Shown here one piece after another: positions 11,193 through 63,839 of a stretch of DNA of 64,000 nucleotides. The stretch comes from Patescibacteria group bacterium. GTDB taxonomy: Bacteria > Patescibacteriota > UBA1384 > XYA2-FULL-43-10 > 1-14-0-10-43-13. Every line of letters starts with the position of its first letter. The stretch's first letter is position 1. The DNA lies in contig JBAYHC010000001.1 of assembly GCA_041666325.1 (NCBI GenBank), positions 137,708-201,707 on the forward strand. The letters are read 5' to 3'. The translations under genes and the position numbers were made by a program. Under the pieces are notes generated by a model, which was not told where the DNA came from, ran no database searches, and was given only the letters and a program-made list of their open reading frames with translations.

Positions 11193-11576
11193 TTATCCAA
11201 ACTTCGGGCCAATAGTGGCTACACTGAGAGCTCGATTGCTAATACCCATCGAACGAAGCAATGCAGCGATTGTTTGCGGCTCAACCCTCACCTTGAGTTT
11301 GCCGCAGCGTAGCGAAACGCCGCGACCTTGCTCCGCCTCAACAATGTCGACACTGTCCTCGTTCCATCGAGGGTGGCACAGAATCTCTCGTGCACGAACA
11401 AGGGCAGACTCACGGGTCGGCCTGATAGCCGCAATCCCTGATTCAATGTCGTCAACTCGGCTTTCGACTCTCACTTCCCATATCTCACCGTCCACACCTC
11501 GGTCAATGGCCCAGTCGAATGCAAGCTTGATCAGTGCGTTGAGAAGATCAAGATCCGGCAGCTTGTTGTCCATCAC
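11193..11576 (-). CDS. Hypothetical protein (127 aa) on a GC-rich island, translationally coupled to the upstream beta-propeller gene (ATGA overlap)
   Basis: MMDNKLPDLDLLNALIKLAFDWAIDRGVDGEIWEVRV... No domain recognised. Confidence 0.5.
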   Translation of the reverse strand: MMDNKLPDLDLLNALIKLAFDWAIDRGVDGEIWEVRVESRVDDIESGIAAIRPTRESALVRAREILCHPRWNEDSVDIVEAEQGRGVSLRCGKLKVRVEPQTIAALLRSMGISNRALSVATIGPKFG

Positions 11577-12613
11577 AGCCCCCGCATCGTAACATGCTGA
11601 AGGAGGTTGCGCACAGGATAGAGGAAAACCTCTTTGGTGCCAAGCGACGCCACCGCCACATATTCACCGTCCGGCGAGCAAGCCAAACAGTGGGGCGGTG
11701 CCCCGGGCAGTTCGAGATAATCGAGCTGCTTCCAGGTGGCAGCATCAATGAAGGCCATAATGCCAGCCTTGATCACGTTGCCTACATTACTGTCTTCGTC
11801 CCCATTCGGCTTATAGCCCAAGCCGGTAGCCAGAACAAGCTTGTGGTGCGGCAGGGAACCAATATCAATGATTGAAGTCATACAGAGCTTCGCGCCATCG
11901 ACTTTGCCATATTTTCCCGTCGCCAGATCAACCACGACAACCTTCGGCTTCCCCGCCGGATTGGTCCAGATGGTCGCCAACCAAACATCGTTAATAAAGC
12001 CGAAAATATCCAGACAGTATTCCACAGATCCAACAAGCGGGCCGAGACTAAATGACCCAATACTCGAGAGCGATGAAGGAAAACGATAGACACTGATATC
12101 TGACCTATGGATTGAAGCAAGCAAACCGCTACTGCCAGGAGAGAAATGAGCAGATGATCCGGACAAGCAACCAAAAGTCAATCTTTTGGGCTTTCTGTCT
12201 GATATATCCCAAACCCCAAAACCTGGCCCGTGCGTATTGCAGACAGATATCAGTTTCCCATCACTCGACAAAGATACAGAATTGCCATTGGCCGGTTCCC
12301 CCATCTCAACAGCAACCTCATATTTACCGTCCGTGTCCCAGATTGAAACATGTCTATGATCCGCGTACCCAAGCGCTATGCGCTGACAATTTCCCATCGC
12401 AGCAACAGCGATATTGTGTACATCGGATTGCAAGACCCAACCGGAAGGCAAGACACACTCGAGCGACACACCGTTGGCAAAGCTCCACCTCTCGACATAT
12501 CCGCTCAAGCCAGCCTTACCTACTACGTACAAATTCCGCCCAAACCAAGTCAGGTCGCGAATGTTGGCACACTCTCCGCGGAGTGTAATGTACGGCACAT
12601 GCGATTTGGGCAT
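11573..12613 (-). CDS. WD40-like beta-propeller protein (GC-rich island); the alternative upstream start at 12685 is less likely
   Basis: WD-like repeats: VWDISDRKPKRL, CSPDGEYVAVASLGTKEVFLYPV. RBS GAAGGGGGA lies before the ATG at 12611-12613. Confidence 0.6.
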   Translation of the reverse strand: MPKSHVPYITLRGECANIRDLTWFGRNLYVVGKAGLSGYVERWSFANGVSLECVLPSGWVLQSDVHNIAVAAMGNCQRIALGYADHRHVSIWDTDGKYEVAVEMGEPANGNSVSLSSDGKLISVCNTHGPGFGVWDISDRKPKRLTFGCLSGSSAHFSPGSSGLLASIHRSDISVYRFPSSLSSIGSFSLGPLVGSVEYCLDIFGFINDVWLATIWTNPAGKPKVVVVDLATGKYGKVDGAKLCMTSIIDIGSLPHHKLVLATGLGYKPNGDEDSNVGNVIKAGIMAFIDAATWKQLDYLELPGAPPHCLACSPDGEYVAVASLGTKEVFLYPVRNLLQHVTMRGL

Positions 12614-12709
12614 GTAGCGCGTTCCCCCTTCTTTGGACTCAAGCAAAGCGGTTCTCTGCTCGGGATGAGACGGGTGTGTCACCACACCCGAGGAGAGAAA
12701 AACGAAAGA

Positions 12710-14007: not shown

Positions 14008-14040
14008 ACGGGCCTCCTGCAAAAACTAGTATATCGTATT

Positions 14041-14084
14041 TCGCCCACCTGCATCACCTGGAGCGAAGCGACTGCGGGCAGGTA
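14041..14084. repeat. Copy A of a dispersed intergenic repeat family (core ...CCTGCATCRCCTGGAGCGAAGCGACTGCGGGCAGG...)
   Basis: A 44-nt near-identical core is shared with 15186-15240 and 31636-31692. Confidence 0.8.
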
Positions 14085-14134
14085 GTTCGCGTACCACATT
14101 GCAACCGAGCACCGATTCCGGCCCACAGCAAGAA

Positions 14135-15124
<990 letters not shown>

Positions 15125-15185
15125 TTATCAGGCGAAATACTAAAGTTAAAATCTCACTCCCATGAGCTGTCTCTTGCAATTAGTC

Positions 15186-15240
15186 CTTACGCCCGCCTGC
15201 ATCGCCTGGAGCGAAGCGACTGCGGGCAGGCTTTAAGCCT
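15186..15240. repeat. Copy B of the dispersed repeat (CTTACGCCCGCCTGCATCGCCTGGAGCGAAGCGACTGCGGGCAGGCTTTAAGCCTTA)
   Basis: Identical to copy C over about 50 nt. It is flanked by short CCTTA(C/A)GCC direct repeats. Confidence 0.85.
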
Positions 15241-15258
15241 TACTACTGATGCCTACGC

Positions 15259-19045: not shown

Positions 19046-19657
19046 TTATTCGCCTGCCTGGGAAATATTGTTTTTCGGTATCTCTAACCGAAAGAGCTCT
19101 TGGTGAACCGTGGACCTAACTCCCGGCCCTATTCCATAAATGGAGATGTGGTCAATTGGAAAGTGCCATGAAATGTCTGACAGCTTGTGCTCTATTGATT
19201 TCAGACGCAGTTTCAAGGCTGATCTTGACCTGTAACGATAGGCGCGCGCAAGAGTGAGATGCGGTCGAAAATGCATTTGCTTTTTGACGCAAAATTTTCG
19301 AAGGGGCTGCTGAATACTATTGTAGAACTTCTCTATTTCAGGAGAATAAAAAACTTTGAAAAACAGTACTCTTGGATCGTGGCCACCGAACACCCCAACC
19401 TGATTCACCGTCATATGTGTGCCGACCATCAGGGGCAGAAATTGACTGATCTCGAGAACGACCTGCTCCAAAGCTGTGAGCGTTTGGTCGCCAAGGTAGT
19501 AGATAGTGATATGCGGTGTCTCTGGCTTTACCGTGACAAGACCAATGTTCTCAAGACCAATACGCGAAAGCACGTCTTCAAACTTTTGCTGATCGTGAAA
19601 AGGCAATGGAATACCAATAAAGCAAGAAAGAAACCTTTCGCTTCTATACGATGTCAT
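19046..19657 (-). CDS. thpR: 2H phosphoesterase, 2'-5' RNA ligase LigT/ThpR family
   Basis: Two H-x-T-x motifs (HITIYYLG and HLTLAR) at the expected spacing. Confidence 0.7.
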   Translation of the reverse strand: MTSYRSERFLSCFIGIPLPFHDQQKFEDVLSRIGLENIGLVTVKPETPHITIYYLGDQTLTALEQVVLEISQFLPLMVGTHMTVNQVGVFGGHDPRVLFFKVFYSPEIEKFYNSIQQPLRKFCVKKQMHFRPHLTLARAYRYRSRSALKLRLKSIEHKLSDISWHFPIDHISIYGIGPGVRSTVHQELFRLEIPKNNISQAGE

Positions 19658-20169
19658 TCAGCATTGACCTCGATTCCACCGAACGCAGTCGATATCCTGA
19701 GGAGAACATATGGTTCTCCCTCCTTGTATGCATTAGTTGTATAGATCCTCTCACCAAAAGCAGCTGTGCTACCATCCGGCAACCGAATTGCGCCAAAAGC
19801 CCCGCTGGCATTGATCCTGATTGGCACATCCTGCCTAATCCGAACCTCGGCACCCCCAAAAACAACGTCGACCTGTATCTCTCTTTTATCTCCCGACAGA
19901 TTAATTTTCCTGAGATCAACCACCCCCTTGCCAAAAACAATTTCATATTTATTTTGGCGATCATTAGCTCTGATCTCTCCTTCTCCGAAGGTTATCTCAC
20001 TACCTTTGTTTCTCGTTCCAATCAGAATACTGCTTCCCCAAATTATCAGAAACAACGAGATCAAGATTCCGGCAACCGGGACATCAAAACCGAATATGTT
20101 TCTCATAACGAGAAGGATTCCGACCAAAATGAGCAAAACTCCAACAAAATTTCCCTTAATTAATGCCAT
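19654..20169 (-). CDS. LiaF-like (toastrack/DUF2154-like) membrane protein
   Basis: N-terminal TM helices, then repetitive beta-strand modules (EITFGEGEIRAN..., VDVVFGGAEVRIRQD...). Family assignment is from memory. Confidence 0.45.
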   Translation of the reverse strand: MALIKGNFVGVLLILVGILLVMRNIFGFDVPVAGILISLFLIIWGSSILIGTRNKGSEITFGEGEIRANDRQNKYEIVFGKGVVDLRKINLSGDKREIQVDVVFGGAEVRIRQDVPIRINASGAFGAIRLPDGSTAAFGERIYTTNAYKEGEPYVLLRISTAFGGIEVNAE

Positions 20170-31608: not shown

Positions 31609-31635
31609 TCCACCTCCAGATACTAGAAATACCGC

Positions 31636-31692
31636 CTTACGCCCGCCTGCATCGCCTGGAGCGAAGCGACTGCGGGCAGGCCTTACGCCTTA
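31636..31692. repeat. Copy C of the dispersed repeat (CTTACGCCCGCCTGCATCGCCTGGAGCGAAGCGACTGCGGGCAGGCCTTACGCCTTA)
   Basis: Identical to copy B except for 2 nt. The core is flanked by CCTTACGCC direct repeats. Confidence 0.85.
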
Positions 31693-31721: not shown

Positions 31722-31760
31722 TAAAAAAGGGCCCCGACCGGAGGTCGAGGCGGGGATGAG
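31722..31760 (-). terminator. Terminator after the GC-rich ORF 31773-32138
   Basis: CGACC-TCCG-GGTCG stem, then GGGCCCTTTTTTATAT on the minus strand. Confidence 0.55.
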
Positions 31761-31772
31761 GAGTGCTGAGTC

Positions 31773-32138
31773 CTAGTCGTTGTCCCGATCCCGGGGAGGG
31801 ATGGGGAAGTACGCGAGATGATTACCGAGCTCCGTTCTGAGATATCTCCCGACAGCGTCACTATAGAGATCACTCAGGGCAAAATCGATCGGCCCGGTCG
31901 GTACGGCAGAGACTGGGTCTTCTCTGCCGGTTGCTGTGCGCCAGAAGTCGAGGATCTCGCCTGGCGCTGCGTCGACGGGAAGACCCCAGTCTTCAACGTC
32001 GAAGCCATATTCGCCGACTGACATGCCAGTCGGCGACCTTTGGGCGGCTTGCACAAGAGTAGCCCGGAGGCACTCAAGATCCACTTGGCCACCTCCTTTC
32101 ACTGGAGAAGTGGATGCACTGCCTATGTATGTAATCAC
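31773..32138 (-). CDS. Hypothetical protein on a GC-rich island (about 60% GC); start uncertain
   Basis: MITYIGSASTSPVKGGGQVDLECLRATLV...GEYGFDVEDWGLPVD... No domain recognised and no clear SD. Confidence 0.4.
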   Translation of the reverse strand: MITYIGSASTSPVKGGGQVDLECLRATLVQAAQRSPTGMSVGEYGFDVEDWGLPVDAAPGEILDFWRTATGREDPVSAVPTGPIDFALSDLYSDAVGRYLRTELGNHLAYFPIPPRDRDND

Positions 32139-32267: not shown

Positions 32268-35200
32268 TTATTGCTTTGTGGCAGGAACCTCTATCTCGGG
32301 ACCGTCCTTGGCCTGACTAAATTGATGCCTCTGCTTAATATATTCATCTTCCGTTGATACTTCGACACGCTGACTTGACGAAGAAGCGCTCGGGACTATT
32401 TGGGACTGAGACTGATCTTGAGCACTCTCGGGATCATATGTTTCTACTCGGCCCGGAGTAGTCGGAGTGCTCTGACCGGAAGTCGCAGCACCAGTCGTCT
32501 CCTCCCATGTGCGCGAAGGGCGAACAAAAGATTCCGGCTGCTGATCAGCTATAGTCGGTGTTGGTATGGCGCCCGCCCCATCTTCACCCTCATCTGAAGT
32601 AGTCACCGTGACGTTGCCAGAACCACCCTCTGCCTCTAGTCCAGTCATCTCCTTCTCAAGCCGTTCTAGTCTCTCTGGACCGTTCGTTGCATAGTACAAC
32701 CTATCGTTTCTATCTCGCTGTGAGATTAGTTCTTCGTGCTCTTTTCTTAGATGTGTAAGCCGCTCTGCTCTTGACTCGGCATTTGTCTCGCCTTGCTGCT
32801 CAAAGCCAACTCTGTGTTTTTCCCTCTCGGTGTCCATCTCCTCTTGCACTCCAGGTTCTGGGTTAGACAACAAGTTAAGTCGTTTTTGTGCTGCTTCCAA
32901 TATCTGACCGCTCTTGGCAGCTTCCAATTCTGCTTGCAACACGCGCTGCCTTAGATTCTCAATGTAACCGGCACCACCTTCGTGCACCGCTGGCTCATCC
33001 GGGTGGCTGCTGGCCCAATCTAATTGCTCCCTGGCCCGAAGAAGTGACTCATCTGCTCTGTCCTTTAGTCCTTGTGCATCTGCAAGAGCGCTGGCAGCCT
33101 CAATTGCCTGCGGTGACTCTGGCGGTGTTATGAGATCATGTTCTTCGACTGCTGTCGCCGGTGTCTCAAGCCTTGACTTATCCAACTCTGACAAACGTTG
33201 ATCATACCAGCCAGCGTTGCTTCGACCAGTGATAAATTCCCAGGCCCGTCTCCAACTTGGCTGATTGTTCTCATGAATCAGCTTGTCAATTTCTATTGGT
33301 GACTGATGATTGATTTCTACGTTTACCCACCTCAAAACCGGATGACCAGGAGCTGTAGAGTGAACAGGAAACATGAGGTGTCTATTGTCGCCATCTGCAA
33401 CAACCCTAATCTCATTCACTCCTGTTCGATCAGCATTATCCATGCGAAGCAGCATATTGCCAACGATATCGCTCAGGTATTTGCTGTTTTGGCCAGCTTC
33501 TCCTCGCATGAGGGCGCCGAGGGCATCTTTACTGATAACAGTTCCACTACTGTAACTCTCGGGTACGGGAGCTGACCCTGAATGATTAGACTCAAGCCAC
33601 TTTAGATATTCGTCCAACTTCGTGGCAGGAAGGAATTCTAGTTTGGTTTTTTCGCTAAAACTTTCAACAGTAATACTTGGTTGCGCCTCTGTCGCTTCGT
33701 TGGCACCCAGTGCGTGGCCATCACCAACTTCTGGCGCCGAGGCCAATTTGACAGGATGCTCCTGTTCATCAACCTCAACTCGAGATCTGTGAGTGTGATG
33801 TGATTCTACCCCACCAGTCCTTGGCGCAAATGGTTTGTCGTCATCTGGCATATACTTAGGCAACTCGGCCATAACCTCTTTCATATCCTGGCCAGGAGTA
33901 ATGTTGCCCGGCATCTCCTTTGCGGTAGCTGCAATCAAAGACTCATCTCTGGAATCAAAATAGCCGCTTTCCATCAATTTTTCTTTTTCTGCTCGGATAG
34001 CAGCAAAATAGTGATTGGTGGTAGGATATGCTTCTGGATTGGCTTTTCTGTGAGTGTCTACGATCTCCTGAGCAAGTCGCCTGGCAGCGCCGGCCCCTGG
34101 TTCATGGAGCACTCCCTCAACCTTCTCCCTCAAATGCAGTACGTCTGTTTTATCTGTGTCACCTGGCACTCCAGATCCATGTGTATCAGGCGCTGAACCA
34201 TGAACAACATCTTTGTTTTCACCCGGATCAGACGGAACAACACCTGCAGGAGCCTCGCCATCAACGTCAACCTCGACCTTATTGCCCGGCTCGGCAATAT
34301 CCTGACTTGGTTGAGGAGAAACCTCTGTAACACGATGGGCAGCGCCTGCTGCTGCGGCTTTCTCCATGCCCAGAAGATCTCTGCCCATGTCAACGTCATA
34401 GCCCAAGAGCTTCTTTCCTAGCAGGAAGGCGATACGGAGGGCAACAACTGTTGCGACACCCTTGCCACCACCAACCAGCGCACTCTTCTTGCGCTCTGTT
34501 TTGAATTGTTCTTGAACCTCGGCCACCTTGCCGAAATCTGTCTCTACATTAAACCTTTTAGCAGGATCAGTGTCGGTGCTGCGCCTAACCATTTCACGCC
34601 TTGCAGCTTCAATAATAGCTGAATGATCAGATGCCAACTTAGAGGTCTCTCGTGTCGAGCGAAGCGCTCCGAGTCCGAGCTGAATAACACCATTGACTGC
34701 CAAGCCGGCAGCGCCAAGACCTGCAACCTTGAGACCAAGAACACCCAGCCCGACAGAGACACCAATTTTGCCCCACCAGGGCATCTTACTGAAGTTATCA
34801 CGTAATTTGTCGAATCCTCTGACGACACCTTTTCTCTTCCCCATGTACTTCTTGTAGTCTTCTTGCTCTTTCCGCAGAAGAGAGGAATCGATTTTCAAAC
34901 CTTTGGCAGTAGAGATGGCCTCGAGTCGTGCGTATACCTCAACAACCTTCTCCTTTGGCATCTCCTTCATTTTGGCCGAGACTTTTCTCGCATCCCAATT
35001 GCCATCCTTGTCCTTGCAATCACCAAAATCGACTGTTAGCGCTGCTTCTTGTCGCTTCATCCAGCCGGCATCAACCGCTGTAGCACCGCCCAGAAAGCTA
35101 GTCATAAGCCTGACACCATTTGCCAATAATCTGCCGCCGGGGATTGCGGCCATACCAACCGTCAGAACACCGGAGACCGTTCTTGCCATGTGATTTCTCT

Positions 35201-35792
35201 GGTAAAACTGCCAAAATCGGGCAAGAGGCCCTCTGTTTTCGATTTCTTTATTAATGACCTCTTGATGTTTCTTGAATTTATCATCGAGCGACCTCTCGAC
35301 GGCCTTGCGCTTCAACTCAAGCTCTTTCTGCTTACGATCCTCCTCTGCCTTGCGTCGCTCGACCTCTTCTCTCGTACGTTTTGCTTCCTCGCTCTCACCC
35401 TGTTGGTCATGTCTCTCACCGTCTGGCGTTCTATCCTGTGCAACATCAGGTGACACTGGCTGGCGCACAGGAGGTTCTACAGTGGCTTCAGGAGAAGCTT
35501 TGCCCGCCTCGTCGTTATTTAGGTCAGGGGCAGTAACACTTGCAGGCACCTCATCATCACCGGGACCTCCGATCACATCGTCTGGCATTCCGAGTGGCCC
35601 AACAGGAGGAATCTCCTCGTTGTTATCCGTAGTAGTATTTCTATCTTGGCCAGCATCAATGTTAGCGACTGCGCCAAACCTTCTATCGTCATCATTAGCA
35701 CCACCAGCAACACTCTCGGGCATACCCAACGGTCCACTCTGAAAAGCCCGCTTAATATCATCTGGCGTTAATCCGCCTTGATTTTCTGACAT
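32268..35792 (-). CDS. Very large (1174 aa) multi-TM glycine-zipper protein of unknown function
   Basis: Acidic disordered N-terminus with duplicated GPLGMP(E/D)xV(A/I)GG motif, then a coiled-coil region (EEAKRTREEVERRKAEEDRKQKELELKRK). Three Gly-zipper hydrophobic segments follow (e.g. WWGKIGVSVGLGVLGLKVAGLGAAGLAVNGVIQLGLGAL). The ~700-aa hydrophilic C-terminal region ends in Ser/Thr/Gln-rich sequence. Confidence 0.8.
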   Translation of the reverse strand: MSENQGGLTPDDIKRAFQSGPLGMPESVAGGANDDDRRFGAVANIDAGQDRNTTTDNNEEIPPVGPLGMPDDVIGGPGDDEVPASVTAPDLNNDEAGKASPEATVEPPVRQPVSPDVAQDRTPDGERHDQQGESEEAKRTREEVERRKAEEDRKQKELELKRKAVERSLDDKFKKHQEVINKEIENRGPLARFWQFYQRNHMARTVSGVLTVGMAAIPGGRLLANGVRLMTSFLGGATAVDAGWMKRQEAALTVDFGDCKDKDGNWDARKVSAKMKEMPKEKVVEVYARLEAISTAKGLKIDSSLLRKEQEDYKKYMGKRKGVVRGFDKLRDNFSKMPWWGKIGVSVGLGVLGLKVAGLGAAGLAVNGVIQLGLGALRSTRETSKLASDHSAIIEAARREMVRRSTDTDPAKRFNVETDFGKVAEVQEQFKTERKKSALVGGGKGVATVVALRIAFLLGKKLLGYDVDMGRDLLGMEKAAAAGAAHRVTEVSPQPSQDIAEPGNKVEVDVDGEAPAGVVPSDPGENKDVVHGSAPDTHGSGVPGDTDKTDVLHLREKVEGVLHEPGAGAARRLAQEIVDTHRKANPEAYPTTNHYFAAIRAEKEKLMESGYFDSRDESLIAATAKEMPGNITPGQDMKEVMAELPKYMPDDDKPFAPRTGGVESHHTHRSRVEVDEQEHPVKLASAPEVGDGHALGANEATEAQPSITVESFSEKTKLEFLPATKLDEYLKWLESNHSGSAPVPESYSSGTVISKDALGALMRGEAGQNSKYLSDIVGNMLLRMDNADRTGVNEIRVVADGDNRHLMFPVHSTAPGHPVLRWVNVEINHQSPIEIDKLIHENNQPSWRRAWEFITGRSNAGWYDQRLSELDKSRLETPATAVEEHDLITPPESPQAIEAASALADAQGLKDRADESLLRAREQLDWASSHPDEPAVHEGGAGYIENLRQRVLQAELEAAKSGQILEAAQKRLNLLSNPEPGVQEEMDTEREKHRVGFEQQGETNAESRAERLTHLRKEHEELISQRDRNDRLYYATNGPERLERLEKEMTGLEAEGGSGNVTVTTSDEGEDGAGAIPTPTIADQQPESFVRPSRTWEETTGAATSGQSTPTTPGRVETYDPESAQDQSQSQIVPSASSSSQRVEVSTEDEYIKQRHQFSQAKDGPEIEVPATKQ

Positions 35793-35800
35793 TTTCCCTC

Positions 35801-36130
35801 CTATTCGGCGAATTCTACTATGAGCTCATTACGCAGTTTCTCTGCTTCCTCTTCAAACATTCTTTCAAAACTTGGTACCTCCTCAAACAAAAACGACTCC
35901 ACTGCTTCAGTGTCGCCTGCTTCTGCCAGGTCAGAAAGTTTTTCCTTCTTGTCATCATCCAAACCCTCAGTTGCTCGCATAAGCGTACGTGTTTGAATGA
36001 GATCCATCATCTTTGCCAACAAAATACCCTTTTCCTCATCTGGCAGATCCGCTGCTCCAATAACAGAAAAAATATCATTTGAGATCTTCTCCTTGAAATC
36101 AACCTGCTGATCCGCATCATCTTGCGCCAT
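35801..36130 (-). CDS. Small highly acidic protein (109 aa), co-transcribed 8 nt upstream of the 1174-aa gene; candidate chaperone or partner
   Basis: MAQDDADQQVDFKEKISNDIFSVIGAADLPDEEKGILLAKMMDLIQ... It is rich in Asp and Glu. Confidence 0.65.
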   Translation of the reverse strand: MAQDDADQQVDFKEKISNDIFSVIGAADLPDEEKGILLAKMMDLIQTRTLMRATEGLDDDKKEKLSDLAEAGDTEAVESFLFEEVPSFERMFEEEAEKLRNELIVEFAE

Positions 36131-36180
36131 ACTCCTCCTTTTGAGTTCGCTGCAATTAAATATCTCTCAAATATTATACG

Positions 36181-41631: not shown

Positions 41632-43188
41632 TCAGGCCGCGGCGCCGGCGGGCTCGCCGCGCTGCTTGCGATTGCGGCCGTTGGCGCTCGGCTTGGCGAT
41701 GCCCTCGAGGAGCTCCTTGTCCGCGGGGGACAGGATGTCCCCGATTGTGGCGAGCTTGTCGTCCCCGGCTACCAACCGCACCGTCGGGCCGTCGTCGCCC
41801 TGCTGCACCTCGTCGATGGGCTCGGTGTCGCTGGGCCCGGCCTCTTCGGTGAGGCGGGCTTCTTCGGCGACACGCCGCCTGGCGGCACCGCGGCCGCCGA
41901 TCGGCTTCTCGCGCTCGGCCTCGGTCTTGCGGTCCTTGCCTTTGCCGCTGCCCTTGTCAGGTGCGGACTGAGGCTCGGACGCTGGTGCCGTGGCCGGTGC
42001 TGCGGTCTTCTCTCCCCGGATCTGGGCCAGCAGGCGCTCGCGCCGGGCATCGGCCTCCTGCTTCTGGGCACGGAGGGCCTCGGCAGCAGCTTTGTCGGCC
42101 TCCTCTTTGGCCTGGAGACGCGCTCCGATGGTGCGGCCGGCGGCTTCGCCCTCGCGGTCGAGGGCAGCGAAGGTCTGCCAGGCCGGCTCAAGCGCCGGAA
42201 CGACCTCGGTGAAGGCGCCGTCACTGAAGGCGTCGCGCCCGTTGCGCAGAGCGCCGACGATCGCACCCCACTCGCTGGAGTGGCGGCCGTCGAACGCCCC
42301 GGTCTCCTTGCGGCTGTCCAGCTCCCACTGCGTCTCCCAGATAGCGAGCTGGGCCCGGGCGAAGCTGACGACGTCCTCTTCGGGCACGTCATGGCACATG
42401 GCCACAACGCTGAGGGCCATCATAGTCGCCTCGCGGAGCTTGTCGGGGTCTTCGGCCTTGCGCGCCTCATCGAACAGATCCTGGGTTGCCTGCACGAGAT
42501 CACCCAGATCCTCCTCGCGGCCAAGCTCACGGACAGCATGGCGCGCGATGCCGAGGGCCTTGCGCGGCGCCCTCTCGGCCGGCGGCGGCGGGGTGTTGTC
42601 CCGCTCCTGCCGCTGCTCGCGCACTGGCTGACGCTGCTCGGCCACGATCCGGCCAGTCGGCTCCTCCACCATAATGGTCGGAGCCGTAACGTCCCCCGCC
42701 TTGCGGTAGGGGACGACGCGCGCGGCCTTGCGGGCGCTGCGCACCTCGTCCAGAACCTCGCGAGCCTGGCGCAGAGCCTCGTATCCGGCCCTGTCGTCAC
42801 CATTGCGGTCTGCCCTGCGGGCGGCGCCGATGGCGCTGGCGATCAGGCCGAAATTCCGGTTCCGCTTCTCTTCCCAGCCGGGGAAGGCCCCGGCGGCCTT
42901 GCCCTCGTCGAAGTCTGCCTGGGTGGCCTCGATGGCCACGCCAAGCGCGGAGCGGCGGACGTCGGGTACGTCGGGGCCGCGATACGATCGCGGCTCGTAG
43001 TCCCGACCCTGCGGTTCCTCTTCGCCCTCGATGGCGACGAGGAACTGAGTCAGGGCCCCCATCACTTTCGATACGCGGCCGCTCCGCGTGCGGACCGGCT
43101 CAGCCGAACGATAGTCATCACGCCGGGGCTCCTGCCCCTGGCGTCCTCGCGGTGCAAACGGATCGAACCTGTTGTCGTTACCCATTGA
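41632..43188 (-). CDS. Hypothetical protein (about 518 aa) on a roughly 70% GC island; Glu/Asp/Arg/Ala-rich, no recognised domain
   Basis: Composition on the minus strand (E, D, K, R, A balanced) is protein-like. The fully overlapping plus-strand ORF is L/G/A/R-rich, as expected for an antisense artefact. GGAGG lies 9 nt upstream of the ATG at 43186-43188. The ORF-track start at 43521 extends into AT-rich leader. Confidence 0.55.
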   Translation of the reverse strand, partial: SMGNDNRFDPFAPRGRQGQEPRRDDYRSAEPVRTRSGRVSKVMGALTQFLVAIEGEEEPQGRDYEPRSYRGPDVPDVRRSALGVAIEATQADFDEGKAAGAFPGWEEKRNRNFGLIASAIGAARRADRNGDDRAGYEALRQAREVLDEVRSARKAARVVPYRKAGDVTAPTIMVEEPTGRIVAEQRQPVREQRQERDNTPPPPAERAPRKALGIARHAVRELGREEDLGDLVQATQDLFDEARKAEDPDKLREATMMALSVVAMCHDVPEEDVVSFARAQLAIWETQWELDSRKETGAFDGRHSSEWGAIVGALRNGRDAFSDGAFTEVVPALEPAWQTFAALDREGEAAGRTIGARLQAKEEADKAAAEALRAQKQEADARRERLLAQIRGEKTAAPATAPASEPQSAPDKGSGKGKDRKTEAEREKPIGGRGAARRRVAEEARLTEEAGPSDTEPIDEVQQGDDGPTVRLVAGDDKLATIGDILSPADKELLEGIAKPSANGRNRKQRGEPAGAAA

Positions 43189-43583
43189 ACACAAACCTCC
43201 ACTCCCCTGCCCGACCAAACGGGCATTGCCGGGGAGCTGACCGAAAGTGCCAGCCGTCACCATTGAAGCGGCTAGACTGGCGGGTGTAATGAAAACTTTG
43301 AAAGTGAACTCTTCGGCAAGCCGGCGAAAATCATGCCGGTCGCGAACAAAGTCACTCACTAAAGTTGCTGCTATATTAGCATATTTCCACGTCTCTGTCA
43401 AGACCCATGGCCGTGAATCGAGACGAATCCAGTTAATATCGCCTGTATCGCTAAATATTATGCTGGATATGCACGATCGACGATATCTAGCATAAGACCA
43501 ATTGATAGTACGCAAAAACATGCAAGCATTAAAATGCTTACCGCTGATCAGGTAGTATTATCGCAAAAAAAAGAAATGGGTTA

Positions 43584-48057: not shown

Positions 48058-49383
48058 TTAATCTCTAAATGTCAACTCTGTACGATAGCCTCTTTTGAAA
48101 TCTTCATAGCTCATTTCTTTTTTGCCTTCGGGCTTGACTACATCAATGACCAGTCCAGCTGCTTCAGCCATGTGAGCAGACAGTATTTGCACTCTTTTGT
48201 CCTTAACTATGGTATAGACCTTGGGCCAATCATGGAACGCCCTGATCATCCTCTCAACATCTCGAGCCGAAGTATTGGCATTGACACAACCGTCATCCTT
48301 CTTGATCATCTTGGTATATGTAGCTTTCTTTTCGTTCTGCATGGTCGGCTTAAGCTCGCCGGCAATATAGTATGGCAACGAATCAAGGAGTAATGTCGCG
48401 CCTATATCGGAAAGATAGTCCTTAAGAATCGTTGACGTTTCACCACCCGATAGCTCGACTGCAACTTGGGAGATGATATCGCCCGCATCCAGTTCTTCGC
48501 TTGCCAGCATTAGTGATACCCCTGCCAATTTATCACCATTCAAAATTGTATACTGCACTGGGGCGGGCCCGCGATATCGGGGCAAAAGAGAGGGGTGAAT
48601 ATTAATAACTCCATATTTAGGCAAGCGCAGCAATTCAGGTGGAATTATCTGGCCAAAGTCAGCCATGATGATAATCTCCGGTTTCCATTTCCTGATTTCC
48701 TGGACAATGTTCCCTTCACGGATCTTCTCGGTGCGAATGATCGGCAAGTGTAAATTATGAGCAATCTCGAATATTGCGTTTGTTTCTCTTTCCTCGCCTC
48801 GAATATGAGCCTTGGCATCCCCGGTAACAACGCCGACAATATCGTATTGCTGATCAGTAATAAGCGACTGTAGGGCTGGGGCCCCAAGCGTTCCAGTGCC
48901 TATAAAAACAGTTCTAACTTCCTTAAGATGGTCAACGATCAATGTTGCGTTCAGGTGGTCTGTTTCGTGCTGTAGAACGCGAGCGTGAACACCTTCTACC
49001 TCAAGCGTGATATTCTTACCGTATCGATCCTGTCCTACAACTGTTGCTTTGTCAGGGCGTTTAACCAATATTTCCCTACCAGGAACAGACAGACACCCCT
49101 CAACCATCGCTCTCTGACGACTCGAGTTCTTAACAACTTTTGGATTGCAGACTACTGTGAGTGGAAAACCAGTCAATACAGAATCTTTCTCTGGGATAAA
49201 CTCGGCTACGAAAACGCTCTTCGAGACCCCGACTTGGGGTGCCGCCAAACCAACACCATCGTTGGCTCGCATAGTCTCAATCATATTGTCTATCAGCTGC
49301 TGAAGATCAAAATCAAAATCAGTCACAACCGCAGCTGGCTGGCGCAATATCGGATCGCCTTCTTTTTTGATCGGTAATATCAT
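48058..49383 (-). CDS. def-fmt: Fused peptide deformylase / methionyl-tRNA formyltransferase (def-fmt in a single 441-aa ORF)
   Basis: N-terminal Def motifs GVGLAAPQVG, EGCLSVPG and HETDHL. This is followed in frame by Fmt motifs VFIGTGTLGAPAL and HPSLLPRYRGPAPVQ. Confidence 0.85.
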   Translation of the reverse strand: MILPIKKEGDPILRQPAAVVTDFDFDLQQLIDNMIETMRANDGVGLAAPQVGVSKSVFVAEFIPEKDSVLTGFPLTVVCNPKVVKNSSRQRAMVEGCLSVPGREILVKRPDKATVVGQDRYGKNITLEVEGVHARVLQHETDHLNATLIVDHLKEVRTVFIGTGTLGAPALQSLITDQQYDIVGVVTGDAKAHIRGEERETNAIFEIAHNLHLPIIRTEKIREGNIVQEIRKWKPEIIIMADFGQIIPPELLRLPKYGVINIHPSLLPRYRGPAPVQYTILNGDKLAGVSLMLASEELDAGDIISQVAVELSGGETSTILKDYLSDIGATLLLDSLPYYIAGELKPTMQNEKKATYTKMIKKDDGCVNANTSARDVERMIRAFHDWPKVYTIVKDKRVQILSAHMAEAAGLVIDVVKPEGKKEMSYEDFKRGYRTELTFRD

Positions 49384-49444: not shown

Positions 49445-49485
49445 CACTACCCGCTGGCTCTCACAATATGGGTAGTGTTCGGACA
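49445..49485 (-). terminator. Rho-independent terminator overlapping the RT stop codon (CACTACCC...GGGTAGTG plus TTTTTTTG)
   Basis: Read on the minus strand. It isolates the RT from the downstream def-fmt gene. Confidence 0.7.
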
Positions 49486-50438
49486 TCTATCAAAACCGGA
49501 TGATCAACCGGATTTCGGGATAGCTTTCGCCCTGGTGATTCGGACTGAATCAGGAAGAAGCGCGCCCGGTACTGGTCGTAAAGGCTGATCAATTCTTTTT
49601 CGAGACGGCTTTGGGGTCTTCTTTTCCCCGTGAAGGCAAAGAAGGTACTCATTGAGCCGGAGATCACATTGTGTTTAGGGTGAGATTCCCCCAGCGCCTG
49701 CCGCAACATGCAACAGAGCTCTTTAACCTTCGAGCGCTTAAGAAAGGTCGTTCCATCAGGGTGAATACCAATACCATTAATGAATACGTCACCCTTCTTG
49801 AGATCTAACACCTGGCATTTGTGACAACTCAGTCGAAAACCCACTGAGCGAATGGCTGCTGCCAAAGTCGCTCTCTTTCTCCTACCAACAGGGAACCTGG
49901 AGGAGAAGAGCAAATCATCGGCGAATCGAGTGTAGTGAAGACGGTATTTCTGGCACAGCGTCCGGATAGCCGGGTCGAGATGAACCTTCAAATACAACTC
50001 AAACCAATAGTTTGAGGCAGGGGCCCCAACTACCAGTCCTCCATTTCTGTGCAGGCAATAACGCTGAAGAAAAGTCAAAACCTCTTCTTGCTTGCCCGTA
50101 TACTGCGGGTCAACATCACAAATAGTCTCTGCCAATTTTGTGCCGTCAATACTCTCAAAGGCGCTGGCGATGTCCATCGAGACATAGTAACGGTTCCCGA
50201 GACGAAGATGTGTTCGCAGCAGCGCTGGCGCCGATGACATCTTGACTGAACCGAAACGAACTGCCCAATACGGCCGCCGCCACAGTCTGCGAATGTACCT
50301 CTTGATCTCCGCATGAACTCGACGCATCGTATCATTCGGCTCACCGATCGTTCGCCATTTCTTTCGTCCACTGATCGGATTGACCGCCAGTTTACGAAAG
50401 AAGCGGAAGGTTGGTTCCTCCCGCTGTGTTTTCGGCAT
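49461..50438 (-). CDS. Stand-alone reverse transcriptase (325 aa; retron, DGR or DRT-like, with no maturase or other fused domain)
   Basis: RT motifs are present: KKWRTIGEPNDTMRRVHAEIKRYI (motif 1), YYVSMDIASAFESI (motif 2), GLVVGAPASNYWFELYL (motifs 3-4), RFADDLLF (the YxDD catalytic box) and VFINGIGI (motifs 6-7). Confidence 0.9.
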   Translation of the reverse strand: MPKTQREEPTFRFFRKLAVNPISGRKKWRTIGEPNDTMRRVHAEIKRYIRRLWRRPYWAVRFGSVKMSSAPALLRTHLRLGNRYYVSMDIASAFESIDGTKLAETICDVDPQYTGKQEEVLTFLQRYCLHRNGGLVVGAPASNYWFELYLKVHLDPAIRTLCQKYRLHYTRFADDLLFSSRFPVGRRKRATLAAAIRSVGFRLSCHKCQVLDLKKGDVFINGIGIHPDGTTFLKRSKVKELCCMLRQALGESHPKHNVISGSMSTFFAFTGKRRPQSRLEKELISLYDQYRARFFLIQSESPGRKLSRNPVDHPVLIDVRTLPIL

Positions 50439-63738: not shown

Positions 63739-63839
63739 TGCTGCGATACAAGGCGCAACAAGAAGCGAAGCGCACTTATTGCAAGATATAAACGATGTGC
63801 TAAATACAAGGCGCAACAAGAAGCGAAGCGCACTTATTT
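63739..63839. repeat. Two direct copies of a ~42-nt element (GTGCTnnnATACAAGGCGCAACAAGAAGCGAAGCGCACTTAT), 59 nt apart, upstream of uvrA; candidate operator or iteron sites
   Basis: Copies at 63739-63780 and 63798-63839 are identical over 34 nt. A TATAAT lies at 63856-63861 on the plus strand. Confidence 0.75.

Follow-up and report, generated by a model that had tools for sequence, protein, structure and literature searches.

We analysed a 64-kb stretch of DNA from a Patescibacteria group bacterium (assembly GCA_041666325.1, contig JBAYHC010000001.1, positions 137,708 to 201,707; hereafter "the window"), which carries a pair of adjacent genes on its minus strand. The upstream gene (35801 to 36130) encodes an acidic protein of 109 amino acids (aa), which is modelled as five helices and belongs to the Pfam family DUF5663 (PF18908). 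The downstream gene (32268 to 35792) encodes a modular, probably membrane-anchored protein of 1174 aa from an undescribed family, annotated by NCBI as a hypothetical protein of a Patescibacteria-group metagenome-assembled genome. The NCBI entries for the contig, which is 687 kb long, include the proteins MFA5926876.1 and MFA6531406.1 and the locus tags WCT32_00845 and WCT32_00850. The two genes are separated by 8 nt. A preliminary description of this DNA, made from the sequence alone, had reported a 1174-aa open reading frame (ORF), a very acidic 109-aa ORF and an 8-nt gap, all of which were borne out by the ORF coordinates and the sequence.

Both genes are preceded by strong Shine-Dalgarno (SD) sites. 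The SD of the small gene, AAGGAGG (36140 to 36134), and a perfect TATAAT hexamer (36178 to 36173) form a putative start region (36134 to 36178, minus strand), with the hexamer located just 3' of the stop codon of the preceding glycosyltransferase gene. From its sequence and position, this hexamer may act as the promoter; a promoter scan did not call it, and the -35 box was weak. At the junction of the two genes (35796 to 35803, minus strand), the TAG stop codon of the small gene (35803 to 35801) falls within the SD that serves the large gene, AGGAGGG (35802 to 35796), which is followed by an ATG start codon at 35792. The first strong intrinsic terminator-like hairpin downstream of the pair was found at 31731 to 31751 (minus strand), with a 9-bp stem containing 7 GC pairs, and a T-run. 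The small and large genes are probably co-transcribed. A 121-aa ORF with a GTG start codon (31773 to 32138, minus strand) was observed between the large gene and the terminator. Its reality is doubtful, and it exhibited no Pfam match and no counterpart in the related loci described below.

The small protein and conservation of the gene pair

The small protein contains 31 aspartate or glutamate residues versus 12 lysine or arginine residues (isoelectric point 4.1), and has neither a signal peptide nor a hydrophobic segment. It matched PF18908 with 24.4 bits (E = 4.5e-5), from position 6 to position 83 of the 84-position model, i.e., over 78 of the 84 positions. A protein was assigned to DUF5663 when its whole-protein score reached the Pfam gathering threshold of 23.7 bits, as was the case here. 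All 10 orthologous small partners matched PF18908 (best E = 1.7e-9), and all ten were acidic, with net charges ranging from -8 to -19. The small protein of the window was 38-77% identical to its 9 orthologues. Given the modest scores (24 bits), it would represent a divergent branch of the Pfam family.

The AlphaFold2 (AF2) model of the small protein (predicted local distance difference test score, pLDDT, 86.5; predicted template modelling score, pTM, 0.71) was confident and characterized by five helices, spanning residues 2-25, 31-55, 59-70, 74-84, and 88-108. A search of solved folds in the PDB with this model gave no significant match (best E = 0.52), nor did a search of viral predicted folds in BFVD (best E = 0.87), and sequence and profile searches of the PDB with DUF5663 returned nothing below E = 0.1. 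Neither a tetratricopeptide repeat (TPR) nor any other chaperone family was found in the small partners with Pfam. Full-text literature searches for DUF5663 and PF18908 retrieved no paper; the family has no attached function or partner.

The large protein, for its part, exhibited no match in Pfam, NCBIfam, PHROGs, PADLOC, or the PDB sequences. When 1.84 billion representative proteins were searched exhaustively with phmmer, only seven relatives were obtained, with E-values ranging from 6e-35 to 4e-15. An eighth relative, a protein of 1433 aa, is encoded next to a gene for a DUF5663 homologue (locus L001). The family thus comprises nine members at ten loci, all from metagenome assemblies, and no Pfam domain was detected in the eight members scanned. 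By contrast with the exhaustive search, a word-indexed homologue search with the large protein recovered only the protein itself, and a word-indexed search with a profile of its conserved core (module A, see below) returned nothing, amid 8000 low-complexity candidates. No relatives were found with the DUF5663 or module A alignments among the GTDB species-representative genomes, from which the source genome is absent; no module A relatives were found in the JGI metagenome contigs, which yielded one distant DUF5663 locus (L011); and no relatives were found in IMG/VR. On this sequence evidence, the large protein belongs to a family not described before, with very few members in present data. The preliminary description had left room for homology to a well-characterised housekeeping membrane protein; none was found in Pfam, NCBIfam, the PDB, or the exhaustive search.

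In all nine family members (ten loci), a DUF5663 gene encoding 105-113 aa was found directly upstream of the large gene, on the same strand. Hidden Markov models (HMMs) detected one copy of each gene of the pair per locus. The junction was also conserved: in 9 out of 9 loci it followed the pattern TA(G/A)+GAGG, with the stop codon of the small gene inside the SD of the large gene and 7-9 nt from stop to start. Mean identity was 45% among the small proteins and 25% in module A. The flanking genes differed between loci and, when all neighbour genes from the related loci were compared with the window by tblastn, only the two genes of the pair matched. The acidic ORF is therefore conserved together with the large gene, and the pairing of a small partner with a large protein, which had been presented as a superficial resemblance, turned out to be real in ten loci.

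The short gap and the stop-in-SD junction, both kept in 9 out of 9 loci, point to translational coupling of the pair. Moreover, co-occurrence in all members and a junction preserved as a nucleotide pattern, while the neighbours change, argue for a stoichiometric functional link, and we infer that DUF5663 and the large protein physically bind each other. The pair would be a self-contained module, restricted to a few lineages of Patescibacteria (the candidate phyla radiation); the one member for which the source names a taxon is labelled Patescibacteria.

Modules and hydrophobic segments of the large protein

The features of the large protein are described from the N- to the C-terminus; all are encoded on the minus strand. 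The models, as well as alignments A2 and A5, lack the initial methionine, and their residue numbers equal the protein number minus 1. Residues 1-130 are acidic and rich in proline and glycine (21% aspartate or glutamate, 12% proline). As the preliminary description had stated, this presumably disordered region contains a duplicated motif, GPLGMP(E/D)xV(A/I)GG, at residues 20-32 and 65-77 (35562 to 35735), in which pLDDT was below 40. Its 6-residue exact repeat was matched in only 4 out of 2000 shuffles. Between the DNA copies, 34 out of 60 positions are identical, with codons differing at synonymous sites; the DNA has therefore diverged while the peptide was kept, indicating that selection acts on the peptide. 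The motif was not shared by the relatives.

The acidic region is followed by a charged, long helix resembling a coiled coil (residues ~135-196; 35205 to 35390), which agrees with the coiled coil initially proposed at this place. It corresponds to an AF2 helix at residues 134-184 (pLDDT about 70), to a charged helix at residues ~134-190 by sequence, and to a heptad-like score at residues 141-178. At its end, this helix reaches a basic motif conserved in the family, (R/K)FWxxY(K/Q)RN(S/H)xAR, or RFWxxYxRNxxAR in shorter form.

Module A (residues ~166-471; 34380 to 35297), defined from the exhaustive-search alignments and alignments A3 and A4, is the core conserved in all family members. All exhaustive-search matches align in this module, and its HMM found exactly one copy per locus. 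It is composed, in order, of the charged helix, the basic motif, a 40-aa Gly/Ala-rich hairpin with a central PG(G), a Lys/Arg-rich helical domain of ~95 aa (pLDDT 73-83), a second, Gly-rich hairpin of 38 aa ending in G(A)IRSxRE...AYEYSD, and a charged helix of ~60 aa leading to a third hydrophobic helix. An acidic, Pro-rich linker separates this helix from module B (residues ~550-646; 33855 to 34145), a helical block with the alignment pattern (T)LHL(K/R)...LA...AAR...G.F..DGSL, which is 37% identical to the L001 protein (E = 9e-14) and was modelled with a pLDDT of about 70-75. Module C (residues ~736-866; 33195 to 33587) is an alpha/beta block with the alignment pattern FD...QL..IL...GR...D.R...DG and with AF2 strands at residues 795-823 (pLDDT about 60-67). 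Between modules B and C lies a variable linker, His-rich in some members, whose histidine content ranges from 0 to 19% (19% for the L001 protein, 14% for P0010).

Outside the modules, family members differ widely: the N-terminal region is between about 80 and 550 aa long, and the C-terminal tails cannot be aligned. In the window protein, the C-terminal ~700 aa are hydrophilic and end in a lineage-specific part (32271 to 33113), made up of a helical hairpin or coiled coil (residues ~894-1050) and a disordered tail rich in serine, threonine and glutamine (residues 1051-1174; 25% serine plus threonine, 10% glutamine), a composition in agreement with the preliminary description. Residues 893-975 were confidently predicted as a helical hairpin or coiled coil (pLDDT 83-90), but the full-length AF2 model was otherwise poor (mean pLDDT 47). 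Three relatives with long N-terminal extensions (P0005, residues ~45-470; P0006, ~60-430; and P0011, ~225-260) carry a repeated motif, approximately L(N/H/R)LP(x)(D/N)(F/Y)xxE(Q)L(D/N)(D)xxK. This motif resembles the start of a J-domain by eye; Pfam detected neither DnaJ nor any other domain.

Sequence and profile searches of the PDB with the full protein, module A, or modules B-C returned nothing below E = 0.1. With the full-length model, a Foldseek search of the PDB gave matches to VanR, SH3BP5, colicin R-domains, SipB, and ESCRT-III, which were rejected as non-significant coiled-coil or helical-hairpin matches (E = 0.68 for SipB; all SipB and colicin matches at E >= 0.14). The coiled coil of the L001 protein matched Surf_Exclu_PgrA (29.9 bits versus a cut-off of 70) and SMC; these sub-threshold matches were rejected as compositional.

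Three hydrophobic regions, whose positions are conserved in all members, were distinguished in module A. Hairpin 1 (residues 204-246; 35055 to 35183) is Gly/Ala-rich with a central PGG break, flanked by AF2 helices at residues 200-214 and 220-258. Hairpin 2 (residues 341-378; 34659 to 34772), with AF2 helices at residues 338-355 and 361-377, is both the most hydrophobic and the most Gly-rich. The third region (residues 438-464; 34401 to 34481), a candidate membrane span, lies in a long AF2 helix (residues 415-462). Two of the three regions are thus ~40 aa long with a central break, and AF2 predicted a helix-break-helix at both, so that they look like helical hairpins rather than single spans.

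Hydrophobicity was estimated by crude sums on the Hessa scale, with the polytopic sugar transferase of the window and the soluble GyrA, GyrB, and IF-2 as controls. The sums ranged from +3.9 to +7.7 in the window protein (hairpin 1, +5.8 to +7.7; hairpin 2, +3.9). Across the family, they ranged from +1.9 to +4.4 for hairpin 2 and from +3.8 to +9 for the arms of hairpin 1, and lay at about +1 to +4 for hairpin 2 as well as, in most members, for the third segment. The sugar transferase gave -0.9 to +4.4, whereas the soluble controls reached +6 to +8 in their best segments. Concerning charge, the 25 residues preceding hairpin 1 are net positive in all members, and both loops contain 18-20% lysine or arginine. 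The third segment is preceded by a Lys/Arg-rich stretch and followed by a Lys/Arg-poor, acidic one in all members. This distribution would be consistent with two hairpins followed by one last span, in an N-in/C-out topology.

The large protein had been described as a glycine-zipper multi-transmembrane protein. Three hydrophobic, Gly/Ala-rich regions are indeed present, but two of them are hairpins, their hydrophobicity is marginal, and no strict GxxxGxxxG was found in the hydrophobic segments of the window protein, which exhibited small-xxx-small spacing only; its sole strict GxxxGxxxG, GKRKGVVRG, sits in a charged loop. The Gly/Ala-rich helices and the small-xxx-small spacing are shared with glycine-zipper proteins, and relatives carry a strict GxxxGxxxG in hairpin 1 or hairpin 2; in contrast to such proteins, no Pfam glycine-zipper match was obtained in 8 members. 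The label is reasonable but unproven.

Interpretation of the gene pair in its genomic context

The window is an ordinary piece of chromosome. It encodes S7, RpoC, RpoB, Obg, a CHAP/LysM hydrolase, YbbR, CdaA, IF-2, GyrA, and GyrB; then a DUF4012 protein, the pair, a GT4 glycosyltransferase, and a Bac_transf sugar transferase; as well as UvrB, TrmD, a Def-Fmt fusion, PriA, Der, a signal peptidase, Lgt, IF-3, RNase P RNA, and UvrA. The absence of phage genes next to the pair, already noted in the preliminary description, extends across the window, which contains housekeeping and glycan genes. The 64-kb window contains no type IV pilus or secretion genes either, and the suggested co-occurrence with such loci was not observed within it. 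Similarly, neither phage structural genes nor secretion-system or pilus genes were found in the 10 related loci.

Two types of neighbours recurred in the related loci. PspC and LiaI/LiaF-like genes were found directly upstream of the pair in L003 (4052-5430) and L010 (1934-3237), and 2.5 kb upstream in L004 (658-2011), i.e., only in the three members sharing a long N-terminal extension. In the window, the nearest LiaF-like_C gene is located at 19654-20169, ~12 kb from the pair, and no PspC or LiaF-like gene flanks the pair. A rubrerythrin/ferritin-like gene was found directly downstream of the large gene in L005 (3504-4061), L007 (4565-5131), and L008 (8861-9430; identical in L009, 4212-4781), and ~1.4 kb downstream in L004 (10106-10663); tblastn with the neighbour genes revealed no rubrerythrin counterpart next to the window pair. 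These recurrent neighbours probably reflect inherited synteny that tracks subclades, and we kept Psp/Lia as a lead. A metal link, based on the His-rich B-C linker and rubrerythrin, was considered and rejected, the histidine enrichment being strong in some members only.

Because the acidic ORF accompanies the large gene in 9 out of 9 members with a conserved junction, a dedicated partner, possibly a chaperone with its client, is the best reading of the pair. According to this reading, DUF5663 would be a dedicated cytoplasmic partner of a membrane-anchored modular protein. Module A would anchor the large protein in the cytoplasmic membrane by two Gly/Ala-rich hairpins and one hydrophobic helix, with the variable acidic N-terminus and the Lys/Arg-rich loops on the cytoplasmic side. 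Beyond the acidic, Pro-rich linker, modules B and C and the lineage-specific tail would most likely lie outside the membrane. DUF5663, made from the same mRNA just before the large protein, would chaperone the weakly hydrophobic module A, by holding it or assisting its assembly, or would itself be a stoichiometric subunit. The DUF4012, GT4 glycosyltransferase, and Bac_transf genes near the pair are envelope-glycan genes, and were counted in favour of this reading. We give it about an even chance of being correct; membrane insertion, the N-in/C-out topology, and any cellular role of the large protein are proposed from the features described above.

Several observations weigh against this reading. 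The hydrophobic segments appear only marginally membrane-like by their Hessa sums, and, for most arms of hairpin 1, hydrophobicity does not exceed that of the best segments in the soluble proteins GyrA, GyrB, and IF-2. AF2 confidence in both hairpins was below 50, the net charges of the loops are not consistently positive across the family, and the C-terminal coiled coil is rich in glutamate, arginine and lysine, a composition also typical of cytoplasmic proteins. As for the small protein, PDB profile and fold searches matched it to no known chaperone fold, and a mirror-tree comparison of the small and large proteins gave a weak signal (r = 0.35, Mantel p = 0.07). Moreover, because its Pfam scores are modest, DUF5663 seems to be a wider family, other members of which perhaps have other partners. 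Locus L011 (123-2027) encodes a distant DUF5663 of 102 aa (35% identity) without the acidic N-terminal extension, and this gene is found 45 nt downstream of one encoding a 516-aa protein with Gly-rich hydrophobic segments. This may be an analogous pair in which the two genes have swapped places. The 516-aa protein was considered as a short family member, but the hhalign probability was 3.8% and only the HMM of the Gly/Ala hairpin matched, so that homology was not accepted.

Peripheral, non-spanning association of the large protein with the membrane is possible, and a real, if minor, possibility is that it forms a peripheral or cytoplasmic coiled-coil scaffold, with its hydrophobic segments buried or lying in-plane and DUF5663 acting as a regulator or co-subunit, for example in envelope stress or membrane remodelling. 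The marginal insertion propensity, the charged residues within the hydrophobic segments and the composition of the C-terminal coiled coil would all fit such a scaffold, as would the genes upstream of the pair in L003, L010, and L004, where PspC and LiaI/LiaF-like genes recall the Psp/Lia modules (PspC, LiaF, LiaI, LiaH/PspA) in 3 out of 9 members. However, this link is absent in 6 out of 9 members and from the surroundings of the window pair; it is limited to one subclade, the three extension-bearing members, perhaps by inherited synteny. Neither PspA/IM30 homology nor a match to another scaffold family was found, and the Lys/Arg-poor, acidic, Pro-rich linker after the third helix is typical of a membrane exit. 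It is unlikely that the two genes are operon neighbours whose products make no physical contact, DUF5663 having an independent, e.g., regulatory, role and being merely co-expressed. The hint of a broader DUF5663 family, the different gene order in L011 and the weak mirror-tree signal speak for such independence; co-occurrence in 9 out of 9 members, with a junction whose nucleotide pattern is kept amid otherwise changing neighbours, speaks against it.

Quite unlikely is a secretion chaperone encoded with an exported effector, in which DUF5663 would keep the hairpins soluble until export and insertion into a host membrane, on the model of type III translocators or Inc-type hairpin proteins. Type III class II chaperone/translocator operons include SicA-SipB, IpgC-IpaB, and LcrH-YopB. 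Like these operons, the pair begins with the gene of a small acidic helical protein, immediately followed by that of a large protein in which a coiled coil (helix 134-184) precedes bilobed, weakly hydrophobic hairpins of ~40 aa (residues 200-258 and 338-377), a likeness of architecture only. The high variability of the N- and C-terminal regions and the assignment of the genome to Patescibacteria, many members of which are episymbionts, would also suit an effector. Unlike the TPR chaperones of ~150-170 aa, however, the small partner has 109 aa and five helices, with no TPR and no match to a chaperone family; the client is two to three times larger, with the additional conserved modules B and C; and no type III secretion system genes, nor any other secretion or pilus genes, are present in the window or the related loci. 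The structural matches to SipB and colicins were, as mentioned above, not significant. Very unlikely is an extension of this reading to a new class of chaperone and client, in which an episymbiont would insert the hairpin client into the host membrane as a translocon, pore, or anchor, and DUF5663 would be a family of holding chaperones, possibly serving other Gly-rich hairpin clients too, as L011 hints. Finally, the preliminary description had compared the pair to a phage tape-measure protein and its assembly chaperone. Like tape-measure modules with a gpG/gpGT-type chaperone, the pair places the gene of a small acidic protein before that of a long one with hydrophobic, Gly-rich stretches, but this likeness is superficial and a degraded prophage remnant is extremely improbable. 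PHROGs gave 0 families for either protein or a relative, none of 50,697 phage records was matched by tblastn, IMG/VR contained no relative, and BFVD no fold resembling the small protein; the pair, with a GC content of 0.50, near that of its neighbours, is embedded in housekeeping genes. In addition, the stop codon inside the SD in all loci leaves no room for a GT-type extension ORF. With no sequence, structural, or contextual link to phages, the analogy was rejected. The PADLOC anti-phage models also gave 0 families for both window proteins and two relatives.

Taken as a whole, the pair consists of one uncharacterised Pfam family and one undescribed family, and may work like other operons in which a small partner accompanies a large hydrophobic client. 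The two genes, the order in which they stand and their stop-in-SD junction persist from locus to locus, whereas the neighbours all differ, and the module (3.9 kb) is unlikely to be dispensable, because it is kept intact in tiny Patescibacteria genomes. DUF5663 thereby gains its first concrete context, as the obligate partner of one large, probably membrane-associated, modular protein family, and this undescribed family is now defined by modules A, B, and C, which can be converted to profile models. The preliminary description had proposed a host-interaction or surface factor; if surface-exposed or exported, the large protein might indeed help to organise the cell envelope or to make contact with a host in Patescibacteria, a group in which few factors of this kind are known. 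A cytoplasmic scaffold would instead suggest, in view of the recurrent PspC/LiaF neighbours, a part in handling envelope stress. The result is a testable hypothesis on two uncharacterised proteins, not a demonstrated new mechanism.

Other features of the window

Several further features were also observed. A GC-rich, palindromic intergenic element of 58 nt (…GCCCGCCTGCATCGCCTGGAGCGAAGCGACTGCGGGCAGGC…) is present in three copies with 78-100% identity (14037-14094, 15185-15242, and 31635-31692), one of which is found between the DUF4012 gene and the terminator that follows the pair. This element could be a repetitive extragenic palindromic (REP)-like element or a small-RNA candidate. A 629-aa ORF without a Pfam match (41632-43521, minus strand), whose product is rich in arginine, alanine and glutamate, is located in a stretch of 55-61% GC, versus ~46% elsewhere, with long overlapping ORFs on both strands; this stretch may be foreign or otherwise unusual DNA.

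Among the other genes, a single ORF encoding 441 aa (48058-49383, minus strand) fuses a peptide deformylase (residues 3-156) to a methionyl-tRNA formyltransferase (residues 157-408). Between this Def-Fmt fusion and an epimerase gene, we identified a gene for a 325-aa reverse transcriptase (49461-50438, minus strand; RVT_1, E = 1.6e-13). A diversity-generating retroelement was considered for this gene and rejected, as no template/variable repeat pair of at least 35 nt was found anywhere in the window. The rpoBC region is flanked by genes encoding WD40 or beta-propeller-like proteins (1318-2367 and 11573-12685, both on the minus strand), with clear WD40 repeats in the former (E = 1.5e-16). Lastly, a perfect direct repeat of 35 nt (63746-63780 and 63804-63838), with starts 58 nt apart, was found at the start of the uvrA gene.

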